A stretch of DNA of 64,000 nucleotides from Eubacteriales bacterium (GTDB lineage: Bacteria; Bacillota; Clostridia; Oscillospirales; CAG-272): contig JAZQXT010000007.1 of NCBI GenBank assembly GCA_045633005.1, positions 62,709 to 126,708 on the forward strand, given 5' to 3'. The translations under genes were made by a program, and so were the position numbers. Shown here piece after piece: positions 11,344-50,307 of this stretch (positions are counted from its first letter, which is position 1; the number at the start of each line of letters is the position of its first letter). The notes under the pieces are model-generated. The model was not told the origin of the DNA. It saw nothing but the letters and a program-made list of their open reading frames with translations, and did not search any database.

Positions 11344-11357
11344 AAATTGTACAAACA

Positions 11358-11391
11358 GACGGCGTTTTCTTTCGGAAGCGCCGTCGTTTTT
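11358..11391 (+). terminator. Rho-independent terminator
   Basis: gacggcgttttc / ggaagcgccgtc stem (two G-U pairs), tttc loop, T-run. Confidence 0.75.
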
Positions 11392-11411
11392 GGTAAATTT
11401 GACAAAAAATC

Positions 11412-11440
11412 TTGACAACTTCAAAAGTGCGTGATATAAT
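11412..11440 (+). promoter_or_regulatory. Sigma-A-type promoter
   Basis: TTGACA-N17-TATAAT. A second TTGACA sits 13 bp upstream. Confidence 0.55.
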
Positions 11441-11479
11441 AAAATGAATTTATATACAAATTTTATAAGGGGAATAAAG

Positions 11480-13055: not shown

Positions 13056-13082
13056 TAAACAGCAAATAAAATGGAGGCTCGG

Positions 13083-16098: not shown

Positions 16099-17148
16099 TT
16101 ATTCCCTCGCAAGCATATTTTCGATAAATATCCCGTAGCCTGCCGTGGGGTCGCTGACAAGGACGTGTGTGACCGCGCCGACGAGCTTGCCGTTCTGGAT
16201 TATGGGACTGCCGCTCATTCCCTGAACGATGCCGCCCGTTATTGCGAGAAGGTCCGCGTCCGTCACCTTTACCGAGAAGCACCGTCCGCCCGACGCGCTT
16301 CGGTCTATCGCATAAAGCTCTACGGAGTATTCGTGCATCTGCCCCGAATCAAGAGTGCAAAGGATCTTCGCCGCGCCCTCCTTGACCTCCTTCGCGCTTG
16401 CTATCGGCATCGCGCCGTAGGAGGTCTTTGGTATCTCGCTGTAAATTCCAAACACGCCGCAATCCGTGTTTTTTATCACCGCGCCGAGCTTTGAGGACTC
16501 AAAATATCCCTTTATCTCCCCGGGTGCGCCTACGCTTCCCTTCGTGATGCCGCTGATATTTACGCCAAGCACCACACCCCTGCCAAGCGGTAGGGGCTTG
16601 CCCGTGTCCGCATCGCAAATGCCGTGCCCGAGTCCGCCGAATGCGCCCGTCGCGGGATCGATATACGTCACCGTGCCGATGCCCGCGCCGCCGTCGCGCA
16701 CCCACATTCCCGCTTTATATTTGCCGTTTTCCTCGGCGCGTGGCGTGATCTTTACGGTAAAATCCGCTTTGTCGCGCCGACAGTAAAGCTCTACCGTGCG
16801 TCCGCCGCTCTTTTCGATAGCGTCGGTCAGGTCCTCCGCGCCGCGAAGCTCCTTGCCGTCCACCTTCAGCACCACGTCACCGATGCGAAGCCCCGCCGCG
16901 TACGCGGGGGAGCTGCCCTTTTCGGCAAAGCCCACTACAAGCACGCCGTCGGTGAAAAACCTGACGCCGAAGGTCATTCCCCCGGGTATGAGCATTTTCG
17001 GCTCGGCGGCGCAGAGTGCGGCGGAGCTTGCTTCGTCGGCGGAGGATAGTGCGGGCGAGCCCGAAATGAGAAGCGCAAGCGTCAGAGTTACAGCCGCCAA
17101 AAGCACTCCGAGTCGCCGTACGCCCTTTATTTTTGTTTTGAATCGCAT
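16099..17148 (-). CDS. spoIVB: SpoIVB signalling serine peptidase (S55)
   Basis: Signal/TM segment, PDZ (GLRIGDVVLKVDGKEL), S55 motifs GGLGHGI and GGIVQGMSGSPIIQNGKLVGAVTHV. Confidence 0.92.
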   Translation of the reverse strand: MRFKTKIKGVRRLGVLLAAVTLTLALLISGSPALSSADEASSAALCAAEPKMLIPGGMTFGVRFFTDGVLVVGFAEKGSSPAYAAGLRIGDVVLKVDGKELRGAEDLTDAIEKSGGRTVELYCRRDKADFTVKITPRAEENGKYKAGMWVRDGGAGIGTVTYIDPATGAFGGLGHGICDADTGKPLPLGRGVVLGVNISGITKGSVGAPGEIKGYFESSKLGAVIKNTDCGVFGIYSEIPKTSYGAMPIASAKEVKEGAAKILCTLDSGQMHEYSVELYAIDRSASGGRCFSVKVTDADLLAITGGIVQGMSGSPIIQNGKLVGAVTHVLVSDPTAGYGIFIENMLARE

Positions 17149-24880: not shown

Positions 24881-27800
24881 TTATATAACGTCAAATGCGC
24901 AACCCGCGTGGAGCGAGAAGATGCACACTCTGTCGGGGCGGCGGCCCATAATGCGCTCAAGCGCGAGCGAGTAGTAGCCAAGCTGCTCGCCGTGTCGCTC
25001 CGTAAGCGTTTTCCTTGCAAGCTCGCCGTCCTTTAGCTCCTCGCGCGTAAGGCGGTCGGTCTTGTAATCGCAAAGGACTAGCCTTCCGTCCGCATCTATG
25101 AAGAACAAGTCGATAACACCCTGAACGAGCAAGCGCTCACCGTCTATCTCGCGCGAAAATTCGGGTGATGAGGTGAAATCCTTTGCATCGAGAAATACGT
25201 TGAATCTCTGCTCGCGGTATACACGTTGCGCCGCGAGAAGCTCACTCATAAGAGTGCTTCGTGCAAACGCCGCGACCTCGTCTATGCGGATAATATCAGC
25301 CGCGCTCTGCGGTATGAAGCCCTCGGCAAGCAGTCGGTCAGCCTCGCGGCGCACCGACTCCTCGCTTTTGTCAAGGCGCGAGAAATCGCAGAACTGCATA
25401 AATAGGTGCGTTGCCGTGCCACGCTCGGCGGCATCGTTCCCGCCGCCCATAAATCGCGGCGTTCTCGGCTCGCTCTCCTCGACCTTGCGAAGCAGCTCGG
25501 CGGTGTCGTCCGTCTGGTCAAGCGCTTCGGGATAAAGGCGCGAAACGGAGAGCTTTGCGGGTATCTGCGATATCGCGGTGTGCGGATATGCGTATTCAAG
25601 TCGGCGGCAAAGCTCTTGTCTTATAGGCTCTATCTCCGCGTCGCTTATCTCGCGGGGGATAGCGGCTTCGGGGGCGGCGTCTTCCGTTTGCTCGTTCTGA
25701 ATCTGCTTGATGGTATAGCTTCCAAGCCCGCGTCCCGCTTCAAGCGCAAGCATTATCCACGCAAAGAGCGAGCGTTTTTCCGTGATAGCGGTCCTGCCGC
25801 CGAGTGCGGCGCGGCGCTTTGCAGCCGAGCGGGTGGATTCCAAAAAGTCCTTGCCGCCCGATGCCGTGATATACAGCATATCTCTTGCGCGTGTAAGCGC
25901 GACGTAAAGGATGCGAATCGCCTCGTCAACGCCGCGAGAGTCTATTTTTTCAGCCGCCGCAAGCCTTGTCGGCGTGTCAAACGTGCCAAAGCCCGATACG
26001 TCACCGAGCTTGGTCGCAATGCCCACGTCATCGTCTGCGGTAAAGAGTATTGACGGCGTGCTGTCGCGCCGCGACAGCGTGCTTGCCGTGTTTATAAAGA
26101 ACACGATGGGGAATTCAAGTCCCTTCGACTTATGCACCGACATAATGTTTACCGTGTTTTCGTCGCTTATATCCTCGGTCTTTACCTCGGTGTCGTTTTC
26201 GATAATGCCGTAGACGTAGTCAACGAAATCGTGCAGGCTTTTGTACGCCGAAGCCTCGTATTTTCTTGCGTACTCGTAGAGCTGTTGCAGATTTTTACGT
26301 CTTTCTGCGGGTGTGCGCTTGCGCGATTCGGGTGACGAGCCTGCGTATATCAACGCCCCCGTGTCCTGCCAGAGATATTTGATAAATCTGTGTACGGGCA
26401 TCGACTCGGCACTAAGGCGATAGCCCTCAAGCCTTTGGCTTGCCGCAAGGCAACGAGCCGTCAGCTCGCCGTCGGGGTTATCCGCGGCGTATTCGAGCAT
26501 CGCGTCGTAAAGCGAGGTGTCATTTCTGCCAAGGCGTATTTTTACAAGGTCGGAAAGGGAAAAATTGAATATAGGCGAGCGAAGCGCCCCCGCAAGCGCA
26601 AGGTCGCGCCTCGGGTTATCGCAAGCGGAGAGAAGCGAGAGCATCAAAAGCACCTCGGCGTTTTCAAAAAGTCCGCTTCCTACGCTGTTGGCGTAGCGTA
26701 TGCCCTCGCGTGCGAGTGCCTCCGCCATTTTCGTGCAGGTGGAGTTGGAGCGCGCAAGCACCGCGATGTCGCAGGGTCTTATTTTTTTGCCGTCGGGCAG
26801 ATATCCGTGCGCCACGAGCTGTTTTATCTCGGAAATAACGAAGGCTATCTCCGCCTCAAGTCCCGTACTGCTTTCCTCATCGGCGGCTTCGGCGTCCTCA
26901 GCGCTGTCATCTGTTTTTTTCTTTTCGCGCTCCGCCACGGCAATGCACACGGGCAGGTCGCCGCCCGCGCCGCGCGAGAAGCGCAGGTCGTCCTCGGACA
27001 GATAGCCGATACCCGCATCTGACACGCCCTTTTCGGATTCGCAAAACAGGTACGAGCAAACGCCGTTGGTAAAGTCTATTACGTTTTTGGAGCAACGGAA
27101 GTTCTCCGACATAAAGAGCGAGCAGGGCGCGCCGCCGTCGGATTTTTCGTCGTACATAGGAAAGCTCGTTCTGTATGCGGCAAACACCGCGGGCTCAGCC
27201 TGACGGAACGAGTAAATACTCTGCTTGATATCACCGACGAGGAAGAGATTGTTGCGGCTTATCGCGCGGAATATCTCGTCCTGAATAACGTCGGTGTCCT
27301 GATATTCATCGACGAAAACATGCGAAAACTTCTTGCTTTCCTCAACGGCAAGGCGCGTCGGCTTGCCGTCCTCGCCTATGAAAAGGCTTCTGACAAATCG
27401 GCGCAGGTCGGAAAACTCGCACACCGAAAGCGCAAGCTTTTCCTCGCGGTAGGCGGCGCTGAAATTGCCCATAAGCTCGGCGAGCATACGGCAGACCCAC
27501 GCGCTTTTTTTCATTATCCACGGCAGGTCATCCTCGTTGAATGCGAAAAATCCGCTCTTTAGCTTAAGTATATAGTCCTTTAGTGCGTCTCTTTCTTCCT
27601 TTACAGCCTCGGTTATATCGTTTTTTCCCTTAACCGAGCCTATTTTCATAGGCTTGTAATCAAGCAGTCGGCAATGCGCGGCGGTGTAGTTCTTGCTTTG
27701 AAGATGCGTAAGTATCTCCTTTAAGCACTCGCAGTCGTCGTTTATTGCGGCGCGGCGCGGCTCTGCTTCGGAGTTTGCGTCAATGAGGCGCAGGGCGGCT

Positions 27801-28495
27801 TCTCCGCGTGCGATATAAGCCGTAACGGCTTCCGTGCAGGTCTTTAGCATCGAGCGTCCCGCGCGGCTTTCGAAAAACGGCAGCTCTGCTTCCTTTTCGT
27901 AAAGCTCGGCGCAATTTTCAAGATATTTTACGCCGTCTGGAACTGCTCCAAGCTTTTCGTAAACGTCAAGGAGCGTTTGGGCAAGCCTTGCGTCGCTTCG
28001 GGCGGTGGTCAGCTCGTCGCAAAACGCGCCGAAGTCCTCGTGCGTGGAGTACGCCCTGTCGATAACGGCGTTCATCAGCGAAAGGCGCATCGGCGCAAGC
28101 TCGCTCTCATCTGCAAGGCGGAAGGATGAGGATATTCCGAGGCGTTGGAAATTCGCGTCAACTATGCTCTTGTAATAGGAGTCGATGGTGCATATCTTCG
28201 CACTTCCCACGGACGTAAGCTGGCGGGAAAGGTGGCGGTTTGAGCGGTCTTGTGCAAGTGCCTCGGTCAGCGCTTTGGTTATCCTTGCTTTAAGCTCGCC
28301 CGCCGCCTTGCGCGTAAAGGTAACTATCAGCATATCGGAAACGTCGGCGGGGGCGTTCTCCTCGGTAAGCAGGGAGATTATTCTTTTTGTCAGCGTGGCA
28401 GTTTTGCCCGAGCCCGCGGCGGCAGAAACGAGAATGCTTCTGTCGCGCAGGTCAACGGCAAGCCGTTGCGCTTTCGTCAGCTTTATTTCACTCAT
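24881..28495 (-). CDS. addA: ATP-dependent helicase/nuclease AddA
   Basis: UvrD-type helicase motifs (AAAGSGKT, FVDEYQDT) and a C-terminal RecB-type nuclease (GVIDLFF...CDYKTD). 1204 aa. Confidence 0.95.
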   Translation of the reverse strand: MSEIKLTKAQRLAVDLRDRSILVSAAAGSGKTATLTKRIISLLTEENAPADVSDMLIVTFTRKAAGELKARITKALTEALAQDRSNRHLSRQLTSVGSAKICTIDSYYKSIVDANFQRLGISSSFRLADESELAPMRLSLMNAVIDRAYSTHEDFGAFCDELTTARSDARLAQTLLDVYEKLGAVPDGVKYLENCAELYEKEAELPFFESRAGRSMLKTCTEAVTAYIARGEAALRLIDANSEAEPRRAAINDDCECLKEILTHLQSKNYTAAHCRLLDYKPMKIGSVKGKNDITEAVKEERDALKDYILKLKSGFFAFNEDDLPWIMKKSAWVCRMLAELMGNFSAAYREEKLALSVCEFSDLRRFVRSLFIGEDGKPTRLAVEESKKFSHVFVDEYQDTDVIQDEIFRAISRNNLFLVGDIKQSIYSFRQAEPAVFAAYRTSFPMYDEKSDGGAPCSLFMSENFRCSKNVIDFTNGVCSYLFCESEKGVSDAGIGYLSEDDLRFSRGAGGDLPVCIAVAEREKKKTDDSAEDAEAADEESSTGLEAEIAFVISEIKQLVAHGYLPDGKKIRPCDIAVLARSNSTCTKMAEALAREGIRYANSVGSGLFENAEVLLMLSLLSACDNPRRDLALAGALRSPIFNFSLSDLVKIRLGRNDTSLYDAMLEYAADNPDGELTARCLAASQRLEGYRLSAESMPVHRFIKYLWQDTGALIYAGSSPESRKRTPAERRKNLQQLYEYARKYEASAYKSLHDFVDYVYGIIENDTEVKTEDISDENTVNIMSVHKSKGLEFPIVFFINTASTLSRRDSTPSILFTADDDVGIATKLGDVSGFGTFDTPTRLAAAEKIDSRGVDEAIRILYVALTRARDMLYITASGGKDFLESTRSAAKRRAALGGRTAITEKRSLFAWIMLALEAGRGLGSYTIKQIQNEQTEDAAPEAAIPREISDAEIEPIRQELCRRLEYAYPHTAISQIPAKLSVSRLYPEALDQTDDTAELLRKVEESEPRTPRFMGGGNDAAERGTATHLFMQFCDFSRLDKSEESVRREADRLLAEGFIPQSAADIIRIDEVAAFARSTLMSELLAAQRVYREQRFNVFLDAKDFTSSPEFSREIDGERLLVQGVIDLFFIDADGRLVLCDYKTDRLTREELKDGELARKTLTERHGEQLGYYSLALERIMGRRPDRVCIFSLHAGCAFDVI

Positions 28496-28507
28496 TTTCT
28501 GCCTCCT

Positions 28508-31500
28508 TTAATAGCTTTGGTCTTTGCTTTTTTTAGCCGCGCGGCATATCATATTGTATTCGCAGTATTTGCAATCGCCCTTTTCGGCAGGGCGGGCTTG
28601 CGCTTTGCCGCCGCGCATATCCTCCGCCACTTCTTTAAGTATATTTTTGATTTTTTCGTTAAGGTAATTAAACGCATCCTCGGTAAGCGTCGTCGGCTTT
28701 TGCGCTCTGCCCGTAGCCATAAGATAGCGTTTGTTTTCAGAGCGGCTAACAGCCGCGAGCACGTCGGGCTCGTCAAGTATCAGTCCGCTCCGCTTGAATT
28801 CGCGGAATACGTTTGCCTTCACCGCATCGGCGCTCGTGCTACCGCTTACCTCCGTGCGCTCGGAGCTTGCGCTGAGATACGATATTACGGCGGGAACGCT
28901 GTTTCCGCCGTAGGATGCGTCGGTCAGCGCGTAAATGTACAGCAGGAGCTGTAGATTTTTCTTTTTGTCGATGTCGTTTATTGAAAATACCTTTTTGCCC
29001 GTTTTGTAGTCGACGGCTCGCAGATAGACCTTGTCGCCGTGGCGGAAGACGTCAACTCGGTCGATCTTACCGTTCAGCACTACGCTTCCGCCATCCGAAA
29101 GGGGAATTTTGGGCGAGGGAATGCCGTGACCGATGGAAAGCTCAAACGCCTCGGGGCGAAAATCGCTGTCGGAAAGCTCGCCCTCGATGTCCTCTATGAT
29201 GAGAGAGGCGAGACGGCACAGGCGGTGGGTCATATATTTTACCCTGTGTCCCATATCGCTTGGTAGGTTCTCGGCGGCAAATTCTGCGGTGTGCTTTTCG
29301 ATAATTGCCGCTTTTTCCTCGGCGCTTGGAAACTTACCGCCGCGGCGAAGAAATACTTCCATAAGATATTTTTCAAGGATGAAGTGAACGAACGTGCCTA
29401 TTATGTCCGAGCTGAATTCCGCCTTTTTGCCGCTGTCGAGGGCGAGCAGATATTTACAGCAATAGGCAAAATGGCATTTTGCAAAGCTTTCAAGCTTTGT
29501 TTGGCTCAGGACGACGTCCTTGCCGTATATAAGCCTTGAAACGTCGGGGTTGATGCCGTCGCTTTCCGCGCTTATCGGAACGCCGCGCTCCGTTTCGCCG
29601 CCAAGTGCGCGCTTTATAGCCTCGCCCTCGGCAGTTCCGTCAAGCAGAGTGGCGTATTCGGCGGCGGCTTCGGTGGTGCGGATGCGGTCGAAGAGATGCT
29701 CCGTCGTGTTTTTTATTTCGGCGTGTTGGCACACGTCGCAAAGCCGCACGAATGCGACCGATGGGGTACTGCCCGCGCGTGTGTACGCTATCAGCTTGTC
29801 CGAGGCAGAGCCGACGGCGCGGCGGAAGAAGAAAAGCTCCTCGGCGCTGTCCTGCTCGCGCCCACCCGAAATGGGGAGCGAGAGAGCGATAAGCTCCTCG
29901 CGCTCGGCGGCTGAAAGCAGACCGCCGCCCGTAGCCGCGGCGGGAAATTCGCCGTCGCAAGCTCCGAGGATGATAACTGCCTTTACGCCCGAGGCGCGTA
30001 TCATATTTGCGCTTCCCACGCTTACCTCGTCGCTTGAGGTGGGGATGCTTCCCATCTGCGTTTGCTCAAGCAGGGTACTAAGCGCAAAGGAAAACTCGGC
30101 GATATCGGGCTTTTTGCCGTCGCCAAAGCAATCGCAAAGCTCGTCAAGCACCGTAAGGAATGCGTCGTAGCTTCGCGCGGTCTCGGCGGATTCTCTGGCG
30201 CGGTCGGAGGAAAGCTCGCGCACGGCAAGCTCCTTTAGCTTTTTGGGTGCGCCCGACGCTTCGATATAGCCGACGGTCGCGCGGCAAAGCTCGGCACAGC
30301 TCGTTGCGGCGTTGATCTCCGCAAAATATTTTTTCAAGCCTTCAAGCAAAAACGTATGTACCTTATTTGCGGCGGCAAGCTTTTCCTCGCCGCGCGGGGT
30401 AAGTACGGCTTTATAGCCGTCGGGGTTCATAGTCCATTCGCCCTCGGCGGCAAGCTTTTTGCCGCTTATGCTCCATTTTGCGGTATATTCTTCAAACAGG
30501 TCGGCATCCTTCGTTGAAATATCAAGCATTCCCGTTTTCAGATGAGCGATAACGTCCTCGCGCTTCCAGCCGAATTGCTTGATGCGCAAGGCGGAGAGTA
30601 TGAGGCGCGACAGCGGGCTTGTGGAAAGGTCGCGCTTTTCGGAAAAATAGTACGGCACGCCCATCGTTTCAAGCGCGGTGTCGAGTATTCCGCGATATTT
30701 CGTTGCGTCACGCGCGATAACGGCGATATCCTTACAGCGGTATCCGTCCTCAAGGAGCGCGCGTATGCGTGCCGCCGCGGCTTCCGCCTCGTCGTAGATA
30801 TCGACCGCTTGCCAAAGCTCAACGCTTCCGTCGTCCTCGCCGTTAGGGAGAGCGATATCCTCGTCCATTTGCCACAGCTTTTCGGTAAGGAGCTTTAGCG
30901 TTTGCGAGCTTGCACGGTGATTTTCGCCAAGCGTCAGCGTTTCCACCTCGCCGCCAAAGCCTGCGGCATCGGCGCGAAGCTTGTCCGAGTAGCTTTTTAT
31001 CGACGCGGTATCTATGCCACGGTAGGTGGGGTGGGGCAGAGGAACGGTTGCGGTAAAGCACTCCGCCTCGCTCATAATGCGGCGGAGCACGGCGTGCTCC
31101 TGCCCCGTAAGGCTGTAAAAGGAGTCGAGATAAACGTGCATTCCCGAAAAATATCCGCGTGCGGAGGTGTCAAGCATTTCGCAAAGGCGGTCAAGGTCGC
31201 TCGTGGGGTCGGCATGGCTTTGCGAGAGCAAAAGTCGGTACGCCGCGCTGACGGTGGCTATGTCCGACAGCTTACGGCGAAGCGTGGAGTCGGGCATATC
31301 CTTGCAAAAGCGCTCAAGCTCCTCGGGCGAGATGCCCGACGAGGAAAGCTCCTTCGATATGGAAAGCATCGTTGCGGGCAGGGAGCGGTCGCTCGCCGCG
31401 CGGTCGTGATATTCCGAAAGCATTGGGGCGCATTGACACAGCGCACGCCACATCATAAGGGTGCGCTGACCTGCGCTTGCGTAGTTGTATATAAGTCCGC

Positions 31501-31726
31501 CCGTCCTTCTAAATACGCGGTTGGCAAGACGGGAAAAGTTCAGTACCTCGATATTTAACTGCGCCGAGGCGGGCAGGCGTTCAAGAAGCTCGCGTTCCGC
31601 GGCAACCGTTTGCTGTTCGGGAACGATGAGTATTGCCGACACGCCCTCGCGGGCGTCTTTTTCAAGGCAGGAAAGGATATATTCGCTTTTTCCGCTTCCG
31701 ATATCGCCGTAGATAAGCTTGACCAT
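28508..31726 (-). CDS. addB: ATP-dependent helicase/nuclease AddB
   Basis: N-terminal GDIGSGKSEY, C-terminal nuclease VDYKTGKK, and an Fe-S Cys cluster (CKYCEYNMIC). ATG 31726 is preceded by GGGAG and preferred over TTG 31744. Confidence 0.93.
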   Translation of the reverse strand: MVKLIYGDIGSGKSEYILSCLEKDAREGVSAILIVPEQQTVAAERELLERLPASAQLNIEVLNFSRLANRVFRRTGGLIYNYASAGQRTLMMWRALCQCAPMLSEYHDRAASDRSLPATMLSISKELSSSGISPEELERFCKDMPDSTLRRKLSDIATVSAAYRLLLSQSHADPTSDLDRLCEMLDTSARGYFSGMHVYLDSFYSLTGQEHAVLRRIMSEAECFTATVPLPHPTYRGIDTASIKSYSDKLRADAAGFGGEVETLTLGENHRASSQTLKLLTEKLWQMDEDIALPNGEDDGSVELWQAVDIYDEAEAAAARIRALLEDGYRCKDIAVIARDATKYRGILDTALETMGVPYYFSEKRDLSTSPLSRLILSALRIKQFGWKREDVIAHLKTGMLDISTKDADLFEEYTAKWSISGKKLAAEGEWTMNPDGYKAVLTPRGEEKLAAANKVHTFLLEGLKKYFAEINAATSCAELCRATVGYIEASGAPKKLKELAVRELSSDRARESAETARSYDAFLTVLDELCDCFGDGKKPDIAEFSFALSTLLEQTQMGSIPTSSDEVSVGSANMIRASGVKAVIILGACDGEFPAAATGGGLLSAAEREELIALSLPISGGREQDSAEELFFFRRAVGSASDKLIAYTRAGSTPSVAFVRLCDVCQHAEIKNTTEHLFDRIRTTEAAAEYATLLDGTAEGEAIKRALGGETERGVPISAESDGINPDVSRLIYGKDVVLSQTKLESFAKCHFAYCCKYLLALDSGKKAEFSSDIIGTFVHFILEKYLMEVFLRRGGKFPSAEEKAAIIEKHTAEFAAENLPSDMGHRVKYMTHRLCRLASLIIEDIEGELSDSDFRPEAFELSIGHGIPSPKIPLSDGGSVVLNGKIDRVDVFRHGDKVYLRAVDYKTGKKVFSINDIDKKKNLQLLLYIYALTDASYGGNSVPAVISYLSASSERTEVSGSTSADAVKANVFREFKRSGLILDEPDVLAAVSRSENKRYLMATGRAQKPTTLTEDAFNYLNEKIKNILKEVAEDMRGGKAQARPAEKGDCKYCEYNMICRAAKKSKDQSY

Positions 31727-31740
31727 TTTGTTCTCCCAAA

Positions 31741-32421
31741 TCAAAGATAGATATTGATTCTGTCCTTCGAGTTTTTGAAATATTTTTTGTTAAGAATGAA
31801 ATAAAGTCCGCGCCCGACGAATAAAACGGAGTCGGACCTTGTTTTTTGCTTATGCACCGTTGGGGTTACGGCAAGCACCGTGTAGCCCTCCGCCGCAAGA
31901 TATTCCGCCGTCGATATGGCAGAGGTACAGCCCGTGCACAGATTTAGGGGCAGAAATATCACGGCAACGCGCTCGTTGTACTCACGCTTCAGCCGCGCAC
32001 CGATGCGCCGCAGTTGCAGGGCTCCGCGTATCGCGGCAACGATGCCGACGATAATGATAACGGGCAGAGCGATCACGGCAAGCGCGGCAAAAACGATGAA
32101 AGTGGTTCCCGTTTGCACTACCGCAAATATCCACCCGATGATCTGAAAAATGACGGATATCAGGCGAAAACGGCGAAAGACTATGAGAAATCTTTCCCAA
32201 AGTCCGTATACCGTGGTGTCCTTTATTACCGTTAGTAAAAAGGAGAAATAATTATTTTTCGCATATCGGCGCGGGGAAGCCGCCGCTTCGGCGGCGCGCC
32301 ATTGCGCCGACTTGCGCCCTGCGTGGCGCAAAGACGCAAGCTGATGCTCCTTGCGCTCTATCTCGGCGCGTAATCGCTTCTCCTCGCGTTCCAAAAAGGT
32401 ATCTCTTGAAAGCTTTGACAT
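31741..32421 (-). CDS. Hypothetical membrane protein (N-terminal charged coiled-coil-like segment, central TM hairpins, C-terminal alpha/beta-like domain)
   Basis: ORF with SD aagga before ATG 32421. Hydrophobic stretches IIGWIFAVVQTGTTFIVFAALAVIALPVIIIVGIVAAI. Stop lies 15 nt before the addB ATG. No family recognised. Confidence 0.55.
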   Translation of the reverse strand: MSKLSRDTFLEREEKRLRAEIERKEHQLASLRHAGRKSAQWRAAEAAASPRRYAKNNYFSFLLTVIKDTTVYGLWERFLIVFRRFRLISVIFQIIGWIFAVVQTGTTFIVFAALAVIALPVIIIVGIVAAIRGALQLRRIGARLKREYNERVAVIFLPLNLCTGCTSAISTAEYLAAEGYTVLAVTPTVHKQKTRSDSVLFVGRGLYFILNKKYFKNSKDRINIYL

Positions 32422-42800: not shown

Positions 42801-43728
42801 GATCTTTATTGCCATAGACGGCGGCGGAACGTCAACCGTGGGCGTTGCGCTTGCTCGCGGCGGCGTGCTTGCGCATAAAAGAAGTACGGCGTCAAATCCC
42901 CACGATATCGGGGAGGACGCGGCGATATCCCTCGTTTGCAAAATGGCGTCGGAGCTTGTAAGCGAGGCGCGCGAAAAGACCGATACGGACGAGGTATGTC
43001 TGTTCGCGGGAATTTCGGGCGTGATAGGCAGGGAGGAACGCTTTGAAGCCGCACTTCGCGCGGCTGTGGGCGGCACGGTGAGCGTAAAGAGTGACATTTA
43101 CAACCTCTTTGGGCTTGTGGAGCGCGAGAATTGCGCCGCGCTCATTTGCGGCACGGGAAGCGTTTGCTTTATAAAAAAAGGCGGAGAGCTTTACCGCGTA
43201 GGCGGCTGGGGATATCTGCTTGACGGCGCGGAGGGCGGCGGATTTGCCATCGGACGCGCGGGACTTCTCGCCGCGCTTCGCTCGCGCGACGGCAGGATAG
43301 GCAAGACAGAGCTTGTTGGCGCGGCTCGCAGATATCTTGATTGCGACGTTACCGAGGCGATAGCCAAGATATACGAGGGCGGCAAGACCTACGTTGCGGG
43401 CTTTGCGCCCTACGTTATGGAGGAGGCGGAGAAGGGGGATTCTGAGGCTCAGACCGTGCTTTCCGAAACGGTGCTTGGGCTGTCCGAAATGCTTTCGTGC
43501 GCCGCCGAGGGGCTCGGCGACGGCTTTGATTGCATATTGAGCGGCGGACTTATCCGCCACAATGGACTTGGCGATATGATAGCCGCGGCGACGGCGCACC
43601 TTCGAGTAAATTTTATCACGCCGAGACTGCCACAGATAGCGGGCGGCATCCGACTCGCCTTCGCCCTCGGCGGCGAGAGCGTCACCCAAACGGAGCTTGA
43701 GGGTTATATAAATAATATAAGGAAATAA
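42793..43728 (+). CDS. BadF/BadG/BcrA/BcrD-type ATPase (N-acetylglucosamine kinase-like)
   Basis: IAIDGGGTST phosphate-1 motif, ALICGTGS, GGWGYLLD. Overlaps the upstream gene by 8 nt. Confidence 0.8.
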   Translation: MSKIFIAIDGGGTSTVGVALARGGVLAHKRSTASNPHDIGEDAAISLVCKMASELVSEAREKTDTDEVCLFAGISGVIGREERFEAALRAAVGGTVSVKSDIYNLFGLVERENCAALICGTGSVCFIKKGGELYRVGGWGYLLDGAEGGGFAIGRAGLLAALRSRDGRIGKTELVGAARRYLDCDVTEAIAKIYEGGKTYVAGFAPYVMEEAEKGDSEAQTVLSETVLGLSEMLSCAAEGLGDGFDCILSGGLIRHNGLGDMIAAATAHLRVNFITPRLPQIAGGIRLAFALGGESVTQTELEGYINNIRK

Positions 43729-43757
43729 AAAAGTGGCTGAAAACAGCCACTTTTTTA
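43727..43757. terminator. Bidirectional rho-independent terminator
   Basis: aaaaagtggctg / cagccacttttt stem with flanking A- and T-runs, between convergent genes. Confidence 0.85.
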
Positions 43758-43758
43758 T

Positions 43759-44559
43759 TTATTTTTTCTTCAGCTTTCCTCTGACCTTGCCGATGCAGGA
43801 GACCTCGGAAAAGTCCTTGAGCATTATCTTGCCGTAATCGGGGTTGAGGGAGATAAGGCAATCGCCGCCGTATATCTTGAAATATCCGTCGCCGTCAAGA
43901 ATGAATATTCCAAGCTCGCCGACCTCAACGGAGTCCGCCGTTTCAACGAGAAGGATGTCGCCGTTATGATATTTCGGCTCCATACTGTTGCCGCTGATGC
44001 GGAGCGCATAGTCCGCCCCCTCGGTCACGGGGTTGCGGTTAACGCTTATCTTTTCGGCGTTCGCGCTGTCAAGATACTCGCCCGTTCCCGCGGATACGGG
44101 CAGATCGTAAAGGGCTATATCCAGCTTGCCGCCATACGCGCCCGAATCGCGATAGCGGCGCGTGATGGGAGCGGTGATGATAGCACTTTCGCGGCGCGCG
44201 GCGGGGGCGGGGGAGTACTCCACGCGCGAAACGCGCTCGCGCTCCTTGCCCGCGACCATCATAACAAGCTCTTTGCCGTGAGAGTCAAGGCGGCGGTATT
44301 CCTCAACGAGACGTATCTCGTCGCCCTCAAGAGTGAAATTGTTCGTGTTTTCGGGAATGCCGCTGACGATGTAGTCGAGCGAGCAATCAAGCGCGTCGCA
44401 GATGGCAACGATGTTCGACAGCTTTACCGAGTCGGATATTCCCGCAAGGAGCTTGCTGAGCGTTCCGAGCGGAATCCCGCTCAAATTTGAAAGCGCCTCG
44501 TTGGTCATCTTTCTTTCACTTTTTATTTCTTTTATGCGTTCTACGTAATCGGGGCCCAT
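43759..44559 (-). CDS. XRE-family HTH + S24 (LexA/CI-like self-cleaving) repressor, HdiR-like
   Basis: HTH NEALSNLSGIPLGTLSKLLAG. Ala-Gly cleavage context VSAGTG, Ser motif ISGNSMEP, downstream Lys in GYFKIY. Confidence 0.85.
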   Translation of the reverse strand: MGPDYVERIKEIKSERKMTNEALSNLSGIPLGTLSKLLAGISDSVKLSNIVAICDALDCSLDYIVSGIPENTNNFTLEGDEIRLVEEYRRLDSHGKELVMMVAGKERERVSRVEYSPAPAARRESAIITAPITRRYRDSGAYGGKLDIALYDLPVSAGTGEYLDSANAEKISVNRNPVTEGADYALRISGNSMEPKYHNGDILLVETADSVEVGELGIFILDGDGYFKIYGGDCLISLNPDYGKIMLKDFSEVSCIGKVRGKLKKK

Positions 44560-44589
44560 ACCGATACCTCACTTTCATTTTCTGAAATG

Positions 44590-44618
44590 ATTATAGCACA
44601 CTTTTTCCGATTTGTAAA
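44590..44618 (-). promoter_or_regulatory. Promoter of the repressor gene
   Basis: On the minus strand, TTTACA-N17-TATAAT. Overlapped by a TTCCG-containing repeat. Confidence 0.5.
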
Positions 44619-44657
44619 TAGGAAAATAAAAATTTTTCCGAAATTTGAAAAAATATA

Positions 44658-44686
44658 TTGACAAACGCTTGCGGATGTGGTATTAT
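44658..44686 (+). promoter_or_regulatory. Promoter of the small membrane-protein gene
   Basis: TTGACA-N17-TATTAT (TATAAT 3 nt further downstream). Confidence 0.55.
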
Positions 44687-44729
44687 AATGTCAGAAAGTT
44701 TCCAAAAACGGAATTCAAGGAGGTTCGCT

Positions 44730-45041
44730 ATGAACAATTGCTTAAATAACTACAATATATATAATCGCGCCGAGTACGGCAGAAAAGAGAAGAAGGTAAG
44801 CCGCCTTGCTCTCGTCGTTGAGTTTCTTCTTGCGCTTTTCGAGGCTGTCGTTGAGCTGCTCGAAAGACCGACGGTAAGAAGGATAGCTCGCGCCGTTATC
44901 GGCGTGGGACTTGCGGTTGCTTGCTACTTTTTCGTAGGCGCGGTCATCGGCGGCACGATAGGCGCGCTCCGCGCAATATGCACTGCTGTCGGTATCGTCA
45001 GCGTCGGCATCCGCGTTTTCGGAGTCAGAGCGTCCGAGTGA
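44730..45041 (+). CDS. Small (103 aa) membrane protein of unknown function
   Basis: AAGGAGG lies 6 nt before ATG 44730. Basic N-terminus, then two Gly/Ala/Val-rich hydrophobic helices. Upstream in-frame starts fall inside the promoter. The 3' end overlaps the convergent transporter gene by 17 nt. Confidence 0.6.
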   Translation: MNNCLNNYNIYNRAEYGRKEKKVSRLALVVEFLLALFEAVVELLERPTVRRIARAVIGVGLAVACYFFVGAVIGGTIGALRAICTAVGIVSVGIRVFGVRASE

Positions 45042-46137
45042 TATCCTCGTCCGTGACGACTCCCGCCAAAAGCGTGCGCACCCCCGCTACTACGGCGGGC
45101 GCGAGCAAAAGCCCGATAACGCCGAAAAGGCGAAGCCCCGCGTACATTGAGAACAGAGATACCAAAGGGTGAATGCCAAGGCTCTTGCCTATTATTTTCG
45201 GCTCGATGAATTGCCGCAGTACCACGACGGCGACGTACAGTATGAGTAAGCCTATGCCACTTTTGAGGTCGGCGGTGATGAATGAGATCACCGACCACGG
45301 AACGAGCACCGTTCCCACGCCGAGCACGGGCAAGATATCAACGAGCGCGGTAACGGCGGCAAGGAGCAGGGCGTATTCCGTTCCGATAAGGGTAAGACCA
45401 AAAAATACTACGGAAAACGTGATAAGAAGTATAAGAGAATACGCGCGCAGATAGCGTCCCGCCGTCTGCGCGGCTTCTTTTTTTATCTTGGGCATAAACG
45501 CCTTTACTCCTTCGGGGAGAAGGGCGTTTACGCTTGCCGTGAGCTTTTCCTTATCGAGTGCGAAGTAAAACGATGAAATGACCGTTACGGCGATGGCTAA
45601 AAGCAGCTTGGGAAGGGAGGATGCCACGGAGGACAGCGTTTTGGACAGAAACGCGCTTATCGCATCCGCCGCGCTTGATGCGATTCCCGATAGAAAAGCG
45701 TCTACGCTGTCGGGCGATATGCGGTGCGCCGTGTCCTTGTGCAGTGCGGCGGATATCTTTTCGCTTATTCCGTTTATAAGGTCCGTTGCGCTTCCGATAA
45801 GCTCGCTTATCGGGTCGCCGTCCTGACCGATTCCCGCGGCAAGCTCGCCAAGCTCGGTGACGAGCCGCTTTGCCGCGAGCCAAAGTGCAAGCGAGACCGC
45901 GACGAGCAACAAAAACACGAGCACCGCCGCCGCCACGCGCTTGGGTACTCTGCTGTGCTCGGATATCTTTTGAGCGATAGGATAGACCGCCGCCGCGATG
46001 AGCGCGGCTATCGCAAACGGGAGAAGGATGGGGAGCAGGTGCTTAAAAAACAAATATACCGCCGCCGCGCCGAATGCAAGGCATATAAGGATCGCCGCCG
46101 TGCGCTTTGAGTCGAAGCCGTTTTTCTCGTCGTTCAT
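45025..46137 (-). CDS. AI-2E family transporter (PerM/YtvI-like)
   Basis: 370 aa, about 8 TM. Overall pattern typical of PF01594-type permeases. Family call by eye. Confidence 0.7.
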   Translation of the reverse strand: MNDEKNGFDSKRTAAILICLAFGAAAVYLFFKHLLPILLPFAIAALIAAAVYPIAQKISEHSRVPKRVAAAVLVFLLLVAVSLALWLAAKRLVTELGELAAGIGQDGDPISELIGSATDLINGISEKISAALHKDTAHRISPDSVDAFLSGIASSAADAISAFLSKTLSSVASSLPKLLLAIAVTVISSFYFALDKEKLTASVNALLPEGVKAFMPKIKKEAAQTAGRYLRAYSLILLITFSVVFFGLTLIGTEYALLLAAVTALVDILPVLGVGTVLVPWSVISFITADLKSGIGLLILYVAVVVLRQFIEPKIIGKSLGIHPLVSLFSMYAGLRLFGVIGLLLAPAVVAGVRTLLAGVVTDEDITRTL

Positions 46138-46262: not shown

Positions 46263-46431
46263 ATTACACTGAATTATAATCCCTCAATATGCCTAAAAAC
46301 TAAATTTTGCTGAAAAAAAGTCGTCGAAAAAGTTTAGAAAAAGCTTCAAAAACGAACGAATTTACAGAAAGTTTACAAAAAATTTAAGCATTTTTGAAGT
46401 GGAAAAATACTTGAATGGAGTGATTGTATCA

Positions 46432-49400
46432 ATGGTGAAAGTTACAGATCAGATGCTCGGAAAGAATCTGCGAAAGAGCTTTTCCAAAACTCGCACCACA
46501 CTGGAGATCCCCAACCTTATCGAGATCCAGACGAAGTCCTTCAAATGGTTCCTTGAGGAAGGTCTTGCGGAGGTCCTCCGCGACGTATCTCCCATCGTGG
46601 ATTTTTCGGGTAACCTTTCTATCGAGTTCATTTCCTTCTCGATAGACTCGAAGCCCAAGTATCCCGTAGAGGAGTGCAAGGAGAGAGACGTTAACTACGC
46701 CGCGCCTCTTAAGGTCAACGTCCGCCTTACCAACAAGCTGACGGGCGAGGTCAAGCAGACCGACATCTACATGGGTGACTTCCCGATCATGACGGAGAAG
46801 GGTACTTTCGTTATCAACGGTGCTGAGCGCGTTATCGTTTCCCAGCTCATCCGTTCCCCCGGAATGTACTACGCCTCCGATATAGACAAGGCGGGGAAGA
46901 AGACCTTTACCGCCACCATCATCCCCTATCGCGGTGCATGGCTTGAGTACGAGGTCGACAGCAATAACGTTATCTGGGTACGCATTGATAAGAACCGTAA
47001 GCTTCCCCTTACTATGTTCATCCGTGCGCTCGGCATTTCCGTAAATCCCGAAACGGGACTTATGGAGTCTGCTATCAATACCGCAGACGATATGGTAGAG
47101 ATGTTCGGCGACAGCGTATATCTGCGCGCAACTCTTGAAAAGGACGAGTCCGAAAATCTTGCGCTTGGCAAGAGCTCGGGCGCGGCTATCGAGTCTCTGC
47201 GTGAGATCTACCGCAAGCTCCGCCCCGGCGAGCCCGTTCAGACCGACGCCGCTCTCACTCTCGTCAACAACTTCTTCTTTGACGCCAAGAGATACGATAT
47301 CGCTCCCGTTGGACGCTATAAGTACGACAAGAAGCTCTCTATCGCCGCAAGAATCAAGAACCATCGCATAGCAAGCGACATCGTAAGCCCCGTTACGGGT
47401 GAGCTTCTCTTTGAGGCAGGTCACGTTCTCAGCCCCGAGGACGCTATGCAGGTAGAGTACGCCGCCGTTAACGAGGTAGTTATCACTCTTGACAACGGCG
47501 AAAACATCAAGGTATTCTCCAACAACACTTGCTGGCCCGAAAAGATCATCGGTGACGATCTTTCCGACTGCGGCGTGCGCGAGAAGGTCCGCACCTCCGT
47601 TCTTCTTTCCATTATGGAGGAGTGCGGCGGCGATATGGACGCCGTCAAGGCGGCTGTTAAGAGCCGTATGGCAGAGCTTTGCCCCAAGCACATCACCCGC
47701 GACGATATATTTGCAACCATCAACTATCTCTTCACTCTCACTAATGACGTGGGCAGCGTTGACGATATAGACCACCTCGGTAACCGTCGTATCCGTTCCG
47801 TAGGCGAGCAGCTTCAGAACCAGATGCGCATCGGCTTCTCCCGTATGGATAAGATAATCCGCGAGCGTATGACCACTCAGGACAGCGAAAAGCTCACTCC
47901 TCAGGCGCTTATCAACATCCGCCCCGTAGCTACCGTTATCCGCGAGTTCTTCGGCTCGTCCCAGCTCTCTCAGTTCATGGATCAGTCCAACCCTCTGGCA
48001 GAGCTTACCCACAAGCGCCGTCTGTCCGCGCTCGGTCCCGGCGGTCTTTCCCGTGAGCGTGCATCCTTCGACGTTCGTGACGTACACTATACCCACTACG
48101 GCAGAATGTGTCCCATCGAGACTCCCGAAGGTCCTAACATCGGTCTTATTTCCTATCTTGCGACCTACGCGCGTATCAGCGATTACGGCTTCATCGAGGC
48201 TCCCTACCGCAAGGTCGATCGCGCAACGGGCAAGGTAACGGACGAGGTCGTTTATATGACCGCGGACGAGGAGGATAGCTACATCATCGCTCAGGCTAAC
48301 GAGGCGCTGGACGAGGAGGGAAGATTTATAAACGCCAAGGTAACGGCAAGAGATAAGAACGAGTTTATCGAGGTCGACTCCTCCGTTATCGATTATATGG
48401 ACGTATCTCCTAAGATGGTAGTTTCCGCCGCCACCGCAATGATCCCCTTCCTTGAGAACGACGATAACTCCCGTGCACTCATGGGCTCGAACATGCAGAA
48501 GCAGGCAGTTCCGCTTATGGTAACGGATTCCCCCATCGTCGGTACGGGTATGGAATATAAGGTAGCTAAGGACTCGGGCGTCGTCGTTCTTGCAAGGAAC
48601 GCGGGCGTCGTTGAGCACGTAGAGACCGCAAAGATAGTCGTTCGCTGCGAGGATGGCAGACACGACGTTTACGAGCTTATCAAGTTTAAGCGTACCAACC
48701 AGGGAACGTGCTGCAACCAGCGCCCCATCGTAAAGGTTGGCGAGAAGGTAGAAAAGGGACAGGTTATTGCCGACGGCCCCGCAACCTCCAACGGCGAGAT
48801 AGCTCTCGGTAAGAACGCTCTCATCGGATTTATGACCTGGGAGGGTTATAACTACGAGGACGCAGTTCTTCTTAATGAAAACCTCGTCAGAAATGACGTT
48901 TACACTTCACTTCATATCGAAGTATATTCTCACGAGGCGCGCGACACCAAGCTCGGCTCTGAGGAGATCACCCGCGAGATCCAGAACGTAGGCGAGGATG
49001 CGCTCCGCAACCTCGATGCTAACGGTATCGTAAAGAAGGGTACCGAGGTACACGCAGGAGATATCCTCGTAGGTAAGATCACTCCTAAGGGAGAGACCGA
49101 CCTTACCGCAGAGGAAAGACTGCTCCGTGCTATCTTCGGTGAAAAGACTCGCGAGACCAGAGATACCTCTCTGCGTCTGCCCCACGGCGAGTCGGGAATC
49201 GTCGTTGACGTTCGCGTGTTCTCACACGAGCAGGGCGACGAGCTTCCTACGGGCGTAAATAAGGTAGTTCACGTTTACATCGCGCAGAAGAGAAAGATAT
49301 CCGTCGGAGATAAGATGGCAGGACGTCACGGTAACAAGGGTGTCGTTTCCCGCATTCTTCCCCCCGAGGATATGCCCTTCCTTCCCGACGGAACTCCCCT

Positions 49401-50307
49401 TGACATCGTTCTTAACCCGCTGGGCGTTCCTTCCCGTATGAACATCGGTCAGGTTCTTGAGGTCCACCTCGGTATCGCTGCCCGCAAGCTCGGCTGGAAG
49501 ATCATGACCCCCGTTTTCGACGGCGCAAACGAGCGCGACATTATCGAGTGCATGAAGCAGGCGAATATGTGGCGTGAGGTATTCCCCGGCGAGAACGTTG
49601 ACGGCAAGGAGACCCGCGAGGTCACCGATCCCGTAACGGGCGAAACGAAGCGTCAGGTAATTGACGGTAAGACCGTTCTTTATGACGGACGTACGGGCGA
49701 GCCCTTCGACAACCCCGTAACCGTAGGTATAATGTATTACCTTAAGCTCCACCACCTCGTTGACGATAAGATTCACGCACGTTCCAACGGTCCTTACTCT
49801 CTCGTAACTCAGCAGCCTCTCGGCGGTAAAGCGCAGTTCGGTGGTCAGCGTTTCGGAGAGATGGAGGTTTGGGCACTTGAGGCGTACGGCGCAGCCTACA
49901 CGCTTCAGGAGATCCTTACCGTCAAGTCCGACGATATCAACGGACGCCGTAAGGCATACGAGGCTATCATTCAGGGACAGAATATTCCTACTCCCGGTGT
50001 TCCCGAGTCCTTTAAGGTTCTCGTTAAGGAGCTTCAGTCGCTCTGTCTTGACATCAAGGTGCTCAATGACGACGGCGAGGAGATCCAGCTCTCAAGCCTT
50101 TGCAACGACGATGCTCCTCAGTATCTCAGCCGCACTGATGCGGAGGCTGTAGACGCTATCGTTGGCAACACCGAGATCCCCGACGACATCCACAAGGCGT
50201 TCCTCTTTGAAGAAGACGAGGACGAGGACGGCGAGGATAACGAGGAATACGAATACAGCGAAGACGAGAGCTACGACGATAGCTTCGATTCGGACGATTA
50301 TAATTAA
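46432..50307 (+). CDS. rpoB: DNA-directed RNA polymerase subunit beta
   Basis: [20 protein letters not shown]-terminus with spacing like B. subtilis RpoB when started at ATG 46432. Conserved blocks throughout. Unusual acidic C-terminal tail. Confidence 0.98.

Follow-up and report, generated by a model that had tools for sequence, protein, structure and literature searches.

A CI-type S24 repressor and a divergent two-helix membrane protein as a probable stress-triggered switch in uncultured gut Clostridia

The DNA analysed here, a stretch of 64,000 nucleotides (nt) of contig JAZQXT010000007.1 (positions 62,709-126,708) from a Eubacteriales bacterium, is referred to as the window, and all coordinates below are window positions. 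It carries two divergently transcribed genes, one for a repressor of 266 amino acids (aa) with a predicted self-cleavage site and one for a small membrane protein of 103 aa, which together probably form a stress-triggered switch that is built like the known DNA-damage checkpoints from undescribed parts. The best explanation of the whole, to which we give somewhat more credence than doubt, is that an autoregulated, self-cleaving repressor shuts the strong promoter of a membrane effector until stress, most likely acting through RecA, triggers cleavage, whereupon growth or division would pause. The regulatory wiring of the unit is well supported; what triggers it (DNA damage and RecA, or a RecA-independent stress) and how the effector acts (division arrest or membrane damage) we infer.

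Relatives were collected by a scan for the repressor family with one genome per species, which returned 395 stretches, and the loci examined are the best 80 of these 395. In each of the 80 loci the region upstream of the repressor gene was inspected for a small gene by synteny. Control regions were compared in 66 upstream regions anchored on the -35 hexamer of the small gene, in 81 upstream regions used for a position-specific consensus and in an alignment of 15 loci. The conservation of repressor residues was judged from an alignment of 31 homologues, the ratio of nonsynonymous to synonymous substitution rates (dN/dS) was calculated by the Nei-Gojobori method for 13 pairs of close relatives, motif occurrence was compared with 200 Markov-randomised windows and 5000 randomisations of the intergenic region, and the matching of the small-protein family to Pfam covered 37 members.

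The initial annotation had read the 266-aa protein as a repressor with an XRE-type helix-turn-helix (HTH) and a complete set of S24 residues (Ala-Gly, Ser, Lys), and both parts of this reading are borne out. The HTH (Pfam HTH_26/HTH_3; XRE/Cro-CI type) occupies residues 8-64 and is followed by a conserved helix pair (79-114), a variable linker (approximately 115-145) and a Peptidase_S24 domain (PF00717, residues 154-259; E=2.1e-19), which scores 69.8 bits against a cut-off of 23.3. In a profile search of solved structures the family profile matches the C-terminal domain of lambda CI, LexA and UmuD, and Ser192 and Lys228 of the repressor align with the GNSM and FK motifs of lambda CI. The predicted scissile site and the Ser are 35 residues apart, and the distance in Escherichia coli LexA is likewise 35 (84 to 119). 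In its sequence the repressor thus has the marks of the S24 superfamily: the S24 domain itself, an Ala-Gly bond as predicted cleavage site, and a Ser and a Lys spaced as in LexA.

Within this superfamily the repressor is classified by sequence as a CI-type member and not as a canonical LexA, because the NCBIfam lexA model (TIGR00498) matches it weakly and in the peptidase part only (20.9 bits, the cut-off being 110.95) and because its N-terminal fold is like that of P22 c2 and 434. The winged-helix N-terminus of canonical LexA is missing from the repressor, which has HTH_3/HTH_26 in its place, and the N-terminal domain of the AlphaFold model superposes on the DNA-binding domains of P22 c2 and 434 Cro with a template modelling (TM) score of 0.82. 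The model is of moderate quality (mean predicted local distance difference test, pLDDT, 63.8), with a poorly resolved C-terminal domain. In PHROGs the repressor is assigned to phrog_4, a large family of phage repressors (3e-33).

The label 'orphan', which the initial annotation gave to the repressor, is misleading, as a protein search finds at least 3144 family matches at E<=1e-10, of which the best 120 are full-length (251-288 aa) and 59-100% identical to it. Annotated members are named 'S24 family peptidase' or 'uncharacterized protein [Anaerotruncus sp. CAG:390]', and one source gives the label 'repressor LexA' to a protein of the family. Among the 31 homologues the HTH, GIPENTNN(F/Y)TL, the helix pair at about 79-114, LPVSAG, GNSMEP and (Y/F)FK are near-invariant, and the linker at about 115-145 alone varies. 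The helix pair (window 44218-44325) is preceded by GIPENTNNFTL in the repressor and lies outside any Pfam domain; the invariant residues around it are N71, N73, N74, T76, L77, E81, E86, R89, L91 and D92.

The control region between the two genes was said to contain two back-to-back promoters about 40 bp apart, and a promoter scan returns exactly these two. Their -35 hexamers are 39 bp apart, and each promoter is TG-extended and agrees with the consensus at 11 of the 12 positions. In the repressor promoter all 15 aligned loci have TTGTAAA and ATTATA unchanged, and TTGTAAA is present in all 81 upstream regions; in the small-gene promoter TTGACAA and TGnTATAAT are near-invariant in 62 loci. All three copies of a TTT[CA]-N5/6-CGGAA motif that the initial annotation had listed were recovered (44605 and 44636 on the minus strand, 44699 on the plus strand) among a total of 12 matches in 64 kb, and three matches within 120 nt occurred in none of the 200 Markov-randomised windows and in none of the 5000 randomisations of the intergenic region.

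Comparison between loci places four TTCC-type sites in this region (table 1). Site 1 was absent from the initial annotation; it reads TTCC-N6-GGAA in most relatives, and its consensus, TTccttTt.tGgaatt, adjoins the -10 hexamer of the repressor in the 81 upstream regions. Within the 64 kb only site 4 scores high with its weight matrix (22.6, all other places reaching 12.7 at most), and site 3 scores 10-11 with the same matrix. The TTCC of site 4 follows the first base of TTGACA at a distance of 42 nt in 47 of 56 loci; this left half is fixed, and the right half reads GGAA in 36 loci, AGAA in 11, GGAT in four, CGAA in two, GGTA in two and GAAA in one. The layout varies remarkably little among the 66 anchored upstream regions. 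From the repressor start outwards the conserved order is a Shine-Dalgarno sequence, a TTCC-N6-GGAA site, the -10 hexamer, TTCCG(A/T)TTTGTAAA with the repressor -35, an AT-rich stretch with TTTTCC, the small-gene promoter (TTGACAA and, about 17 nt further on, TGnTATAAT) and a second TTCC-N6-GGAA. Over the 124-nt regulatory core the window and locus L008 are 97% identical, a pair in which 78% of the synonymous sites of the adjacent gene differ, and the window and L041 are still 81% identical, though the L041 repressor is only about 60% identical and its chromosomal context is different. The sites are non-random and conserved in position and in sequence (56-81 loci).

The DNA-binding domains of P22 c2 and 434 bind operators of 14-18 bp with short outer half-sites, the geometry of the 434 type being 4+6+4, and the 4+6+4 geometry of the present sites agrees with the fold match of the repressor N-terminus. 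The adjacent repressor presumably binds the TTCC-type sites, because the two co-occur, because both the recognition region and the half-site are invariant, and because the repressor-side sites are kept where the small gene has been lost. An alternative reading of TTCC-N6-GGAA in the 5' untranslated region (UTR) as an RNA hairpin was rejected. It is regarded as a DNA site and not as an RNA stem, since the right half drifts without a compensating change in the left half and the half-site is also present outside the transcripts, in DNA upstream of both promoters. Rfam has nothing at threshold in 43400-45400, the only weak matches being on the terminator hairpin.

Further peculiarities of the control region are seen in single groups of loci. 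In the distant loci L043, L057 and L065, among others, the spacer of the small-gene promoter reads TGTCGAA, which is the consensus Spo0A box (TTGCGGA at 44668-44674 of the window); in these spore-forming hosts this may be a coincidence or may be a link to sporulation control. A long 5' UTR (about 100-180 nt) precedes the small gene in L045, L046, L064, L076, L068, L081, L049, L069 and L079, and several of these loci carry a second TTCC-N6-GGAA-like site within it.

The small gene starts at 44730, not at 44731, and a longer reading of 127 aa from a TTG at 44658 was rejected because this TTG is the start of the -35 hexamer itself. The strong AAGGAGG Shine-Dalgarno sequence and the protein of 103 aa with a basic N-terminus and two helices, both described by the initial annotation, agree with the sequence and with the AlphaFold model. 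A divergent small open reading frame (ORF) behind a TTGACA promoter and a Shine-Dalgarno sequence is present in 61 of the 80 loci and encodes 85-147 aa (median 103). Outside genus-level relatives these proteins are only 8-32% identical to that of the window, and they follow a common plan: a Met-Asn start (57 of 62 proteins), first 30 residues rich in Asn, Tyr, Lys and Arg, then an amphipathic helix and a conserved Arg/Lys, after which a short G-x-(I/L)-(G/E)-x-G turn connects two hydrophobic helices, and finally a short basic tail. With dN/dS values of 0.10-0.30 in the 13 close pairs, the ORF is evidently translated and constrained.

The structure prediction for the small protein, which was based on an alignment of 39 sequences (mean pLDDT 74.6), has helices at residues 3-45, 47-74 and 79-97, of which the last two would form a membrane hairpin with a turn of about four residues and a C-terminal tail of six residues. 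The predicted topology places both ends in the cytoplasm, with a cytoplasmic N-terminal region of about 45 aa. A fold search with the model gave no match at E<=0.001, as is expected for a helical hairpin. Direct searches found five close homologues, 11 clusters with a narrow profile and 76 clusters with a broad profile; the family was recovered mainly by synteny. That the effector lacks LysM and any likeness to the YneA, SosA, ChiZ and DivS families, as had been proposed, was corroborated: none of the 37 members matches a Pfam family, LysM included, and the window protein has no match in NCBIfam, PHROG or PADLOC. As far as its sequences tell, the family is undescribed.

At its 3' end the small gene overlaps by 17 bp (45025-45041) the 3' end of the convergent gene for an AI-2E transporter (45025-46137, minus strand), an overlap that is retained in L001-L005. 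No intrinsic terminator was found behind the small gene, and therefore an induced transcript would run antisense into the AI-2E transporter gene.

The 80 best loci all belong to metagenome-assembled genomes of uncultured Eubacteriales, Clostridia or Oscillospiraceae from the guts of ruminants, horses and humans. In the window the pair is flanked by genes for a transglutaminase-like protein, a BadF-type ATPase, the AI-2E transporter and rpoB/rpoC, so that the housekeeping flanks reported by the initial annotation are as described. Genus- to family-level relatives (rpoB 82-99% identical) have the pair at the same place, between the BadF-type ATPase gene and AI-2E/rpoB. More distant genomes have it in other contexts: with spoIIP/gpr on one side and a cupin gene on the other; with a dehydrogenase/miaA/sepF block on one side and mfd-pth-polC on the other; or amid tRNA synthetase genes (leuS). 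Neither the window nor any context examined contains an integrase or phage structural gene, and because of this and of the housekeeping contexts the reading as a prophage remnant is rejected; the two-gene unit is chromosomal and conserved. Across dozens of species the TTCC-type repeats, too, are kept in sequence and position, so that both the divergent pair and its sites have stood up to the comparison.

The small gene was not detected in 19 of the 80 loci, two of which (L050 and L052) hold too little upstream DNA to judge. In the other 17 (L038, L040, L042, L047, L048, L054, L055, L058, L063, L066, L067, L072, L073, L078, L080, L082 and L083) the repressor promoter and the TTCC-type sites are kept, and the small gene and its promoter are gone. 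The retention of the sites fits autoregulation of the repressor; the retention of the repressor suggests that it has a role or targets beyond the small gene.

According to the explanation we prefer, a repressor dimer of the CI/434 type would bind 14-bp operators of the TTCC-N6-GGAA type in the 170-bp divergent control region. The perfect operator at +7 to +20 of a near-consensus, TG-extended sigma-A promoter would keep the small gene off, and the three weaker sites, at the repressor transcription start, at its -35 and between the promoters, would provide negative autoregulation. Autoregulation by weaker sites on the repressor's own promoter is the classical arrangement of LexA and CI. A stress signal, most likely RecA filaments on damaged DNA, would bring about cleavage of Ala157-Gly158, catalysed by Ser192 and Lys228, which would separate the DNA-binding half from the dimerising half. 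The new VSA-COOH end would probably mark the N-terminal fragment for degradation by Clp; clearance of the fragment is suggested because this end resembles VAA-COOH, the Clp degron of LexA-like proteins (PMC12273997). The freed strong promoter would then fire, and the 103-aa protein would insert into the membrane as a two-helix hairpin with both ends in the cytoplasm and would most likely pause growth or division until the repressor has been resynthesised from its own derepressed promoter. A reversible arrest of growth or division is favoured because of the analogy with lexA-yneA/sosA/chiZ/divS (PMC6851548, PMC13396833), the fast drift that is typical of such inhibitors, and the long-term vertical retention of the unit.

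In these analogous systems lexA is divergent from yneA (Bacillus, Listeria), sosA (Staphylococcus), chiZ (Mycobacterium) or divS (Corynebacterium) (PMC6851548, PMC13396833). The likeness lies in a self-cleaving S24 repressor whose gene is divergent from that of a small, fast-evolving, membrane-anchored protein, with the operator of the repressor in the promoter of the small gene, whereas the differences lie in the DNA-binding domain (XRE/CI-type HTH here, winged helix in LexA) and in the operator (TTCC-N6-GGAA here, GAAC-N4-GTTC there). Inhibitors of the YneA/SosA type have a single transmembrane helix and an extracellular C-terminus, with LysM in most (PMC6851548); the small protein, in contrast, is modelled as a two-helix hairpin with almost nothing extracellular and with its N-terminal region of about 45 aa in the cytoplasm. 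The proposal of the initial annotation that this is an analogous checkpoint or toxin module is supported in part: the conserved two-gene module stands, whereas DNA damage would be a presumed trigger and a checkpoint or toxin role a presumed function of the small protein, in which the structural hallmarks of the YneA/SosA type are missing.

Among described systems, FddR of Francisella comes nearest in its logic; this lambdoid S24 repressor has been co-opted, occurs genus-wide and controls itself and a divergent gene of unknown function via a palindrome (PMC13148647). A clade-wide divergent pair with a palindromic motif in the common promoter region is likewise found here (61 of 80 loci), but phylum, partner gene and operator (GTG-N11-CAC in FddR) are different, and the ciprofloxacin induction and DNA binding of FddR are experimental (PMC13148647), whereas the present unit is known from sequence alone. 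HdiR of Lactococcus and Streptococcus and the non-canonical LexA of Bacteroidetes are also phage-like HTH+S24 repressors that serve as host DNA-damage regulators (PMC8565304). They differ in that HdiR controls umuC-type cassettes and the Bacteroidetes LexA a full SOS regulon, whereas the only target identified here is the small membrane protein. With the repressors of phage 434 and P22 c2 the unit shares the N-terminal fold, the 14-bp operator of 4+6+4 and graded operators between divergent promoters, but it is not located in a phage, has no Cro-like partner, and its divergent gene encodes a membrane protein.

Several observations weigh against a DNA-damage checkpoint acting through this membrane protein. 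All carriers of the unit, the 80 loci as well as the named members, are uncultured organisms. The repressor persists where the small gene was not detected, and the layout of the known Gram-positive division inhibitors (one transmembrane helix, extracellular C-terminus, LysM) is not that of the small protein. Neither an SOS gene nor a second operator was found in the 64-kb window, addAB included; 814 kb of related loci likewise gave none besides chance-level coding matches, and the flanks of 91 loci show no repair gene with the operator. It is therefore only the S24 domain that ties the unit to DNA damage. Repressors of the same architecture also cleave themselves for other reasons: IrvR of Streptococcus mutans cleaves without RecA via an internal dimerisation region at residues 81-122 (PMC7101444), and PrlP of Streptococcus suis, a 266-aa protein with its cut at Ala155-Gly156, reacts to heat as well as to acid, oxidative and osmotic stress (PMC12273997). 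The helix pair 79-114 of our repressor occupies the position of that dimerisation region, and the length of PrlP is the same and its cleavage position nearly the same as those of the repressor (Ala157-Gly158).

Searches for other elements of an SOS response gave the following picture. The strict Firmicutes SOS box (CGAAC-N4-GTTCG) is found neither in the 814 kb nor in the control region, and canonical lexA is absent from the window and from every collected locus, these being locus stretches and not whole genomes. Upstream of addAB there is neither a TTCC-N6-GGAA site nor an SOS box. Outside the module perfect TTCC-N6-GGAA occurs 27 times in 668 kb, against approximately 10 expected. One form, TTCC-GATT(T/A)(C/T)-GGAA, recurs at about 1.1 kb (+1070-1180) from the repressor start in five loci (L038, about 5075; L047, 5183; L048, 2402; L050, 1557; L052, 1155). 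These five recurrent sites are probably coincidental coding sequence for LSDFGNE within a conserved downstream gene (MGENRFPNLPRETVCIETNRVLDSCRDRDCFENV...) and not operators.

The same wiring could therefore answer to another trigger, in that self-cleavage of the IrvR/PrlP type, independent of RecA, would occur under envelope, acid, oxidative or heat stress and the small protein would be a general stress or envelope effector; we consider this possible, although the less likely course. The position of the helix pair, the correspondence with PrlP and the lack of a DNA-repair gene linked to the operator in any collected sequence argue for it, and so does the wider architecture: IrvR and PrlP are chromosomal XRE+S24 proteins of about 266 aa with an Ala-Gly near 155-157 and a functional region between HTH and peptidase, and IrvR is divergently paired with its target irvA, as the repressor is with the small gene. 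However, the likeness is one of architecture only; the best phage and streptococcal relatives of the repressor are only about 29% identical, the targets of IrvR and PrlP are soluble regulators or broad regulons and not a two-helix membrane protein, and, unlike these two with their RecA-independent or multi-stress cleavage, most characterised S24 repressors depend on RecA (PMC8565304). A different possibility is that these lineages have the repressor as their global SOS regulator, in place of canonical LexA or as a duplicate of it, and that the small gene is merely its nearest target. The retention of the repressor and its autoregulatory sites in the 19 loci without the small gene, the 60-75% identity over 100% of the repressor length in well over 100 clusters, the Bacteroidetes precedent (PMC8565304) and the 'repressor LexA' label of one source speak for such a role, but no strong operator exists elsewhere in the 64 kb, the region upstream of addAB included, or in the flanks of the 91 loci, and the score with the NCBIfam lexA model is far below its cut-off, which makes this role distinctly doubtful.

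The effector might, on the other hand, be a membrane-damaging protein, class-II-holin-like, pinholin-like or a depolariser of the TisB type, the induction of which would lead to dormancy, lysis or release of contents. Such precedents exist: in Pseudomonas the S24 repressors AlpR (XRE+S24, acting through alpA-alpBCDE on a holin-like lysis pathway) and PrtR, and in E. coli LexA with tisB, restrain membrane lysis or depolarisation until DNA is damaged. Small size, two membrane helices, the predicted cytoplasmic location of both ends and a C-terminus that is short and basic would suit this role, and the unusually tight repression by a perfect operator on a near-consensus promoter would suit a toxic product. 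The model is compatible with a holin-type topology, but its C-terminus is very short and its cytoplasmic N-terminal region unusually long. Against membrane damage, no holin or toxin family was matched among the small proteins (Pfam in the 37 members, PHROG, NCBIfam, PADLOC), the small protein is related to AlpB and TisB neither by sequence nor by family, and the vicinity shows no sign of a lysis cassette, an endolysin or an antitoxin RNA; the long-term vertical inheritance at core chromosomal positions, with dN/dS of 0.1-0.3, agrees with membrane damage without being specific support. Given the tight repression and the holin-like topology, membrane damage is a serious alternative, albeit an unlikely one. 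Finally, the pair could be a decaying immunity region of a prophage, a CI-like repressor with a lytic-side or exclusion gene and no host function, which would agree with phage repressors (PHROG_4) as the closest annotated relatives and with back-to-back promoters as in a lambdoid immunity region. This is largely refuted and very improbable: relatives of the repressor in phage genomes are at most 31% identical and in plasmids at most 29%, the 2.9 million viral contigs hold a single relative (28% identity), the small protein has no relative in phage or plasmid collections, and strong purifying selection acts on the gene pair and on the 124-nt non-coding core in 61 species. The simple prophage remnant, which the initial annotation had named as an outcome that would refute its reading, is thereby not borne out.

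The wider neighbourhood of the unit contains addAB-like genes, spoVAD, spoIVB, groEL and genes for dockerin proteins. The AddA/AddB-type helicase-nuclease pair (1204 and 1078 aa; 24881-31744, minus strand) appears to form an operon with the gene of a QueG-like Fe-S protein. Two dockerin-bearing secreted proteins, spoVAD and spoIVB lie at 9616-12973, 13071-14090 and 16099-17148, and the source is therefore regarded as a spore-forming, cellulosome-type, Oscillospirales-like member of the gut Clostridia. The rpoB gene (46399-50307) ends in an acidic tail of about 30 residues, and its listed ORF starts at a GTG about 12 codons before a more typical start.

Table 1. Features of the two-gene unit in window coordinates.
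Feature	Position	Strand	Basis and remarks
Bidirectional intrinsic terminator, common to the repressor and BadF-type ATPase genes	43723-43760		17-pair stem, T runs on both strands
Repressor gene, 266 aa	43759-44559	-	ORF; Pfam HTH_26/HTH_3, Peptidase_S24
Lys228 codon (GYFK), predicted partner of Ser192	43876-43878	-	Codon read; K228 invariant (n=31)
Ser192 codon (GNSMEP), predicted nucleophile	43984-43986	-	Codon read; S192 invariant (n=31)
Ala157-Gly158 codons, predicted self-cleavage bond in LPVSAG	44086-44091	-	Codons read from sequence; V155, S156, A157, G158 invariant (n=31)
Site 1, TTCA-TTTTCT-GAAA, degenerate, 14 bp, over predicted repressor transcription start	44574-44587		Consensus of 81 upstream regions
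Repressor promoter: -35 TTTACA (44613-44618), 17-nt spacer, TG-extended -10 TATAAT (44590-44595)	44590-44618	-	Promoter scan
Site 2, TTCC-GATTTG-TAAA, overlaps repressor -35	44605-44618		Consensus TTcCg.TTTGTAAA, 81 upstream regions
Site 3, TTCC-GAAATTT-GAAA, between promoters, just upstream of small-gene -35	44636-44650		TTTTCc conserved
Small-gene promoter: -35 TTGACA (44658-44663), 17-nt spacer, TG-extended -10 TATTAT (44681-44686)	44658-44686	+	Promoter scan
Site 4, perfect palindrome TTCC-AAAAAC-GGAA, about +7 to +20 of small-gene transcript	44700-44713		Strongest predicted operator
Shine-Dalgarno AAGGAGG, 6 nt before ATG	44717-44723	+	Sequence; GGAG/GAGG-type sites before the start in 61 loci
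Small membrane protein gene, 103 aa	44730-45041	+	ORF, conservation, dN/dS

An S24 repressor that guards a divergent small membrane protein is a recurring way of coupling stress to the cell cycle, in which the effectors are unrelated between lineages and have mostly been found by synteny. The design logic is therefore known already; new are the effector family, the operator and a partner topology unlike that of the characterised SOS division inhibitors. To this the unit contributes an example that is well delimited, widely conserved and drawn from abundant uncultured Clostridia of the gut and rumen, and its operator set is unusually clear, with four graded 14-bp sites in a 124-nt core that stays near-constant while synonymous sites saturate. 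With one repressor, one operator motif and one product of 103 aa it is a compact system that is open to experimental study, and it is a further data point for the view that SOS-like networks are rebuilt from self-contained units of a repressor and a divergent gene (PMC13148647). Should the repressor turn out to be RecA-independent, the single-protein stress sensor of the IrvR/PrlP type would extend beyond the streptococci. As a tentative and rather speculative extension, a whole order-level group of uncultured, spore-forming gut Clostridia may use a domesticated CI-type repressor and an unrecognised two-helix family as a checkpoint for stress or DNA damage. The conserved cytoplasmic N-terminus of this family (MN-x-x-Y/I-N...) would act on the machinery of division or sporulation by contact from inside, and in the lineages without the small gene the repressor may have taken on a wider LexA-like regulon. 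Such contact from inside, if true, would be an action unlike that of any known Gram-positive SOS inhibitor.

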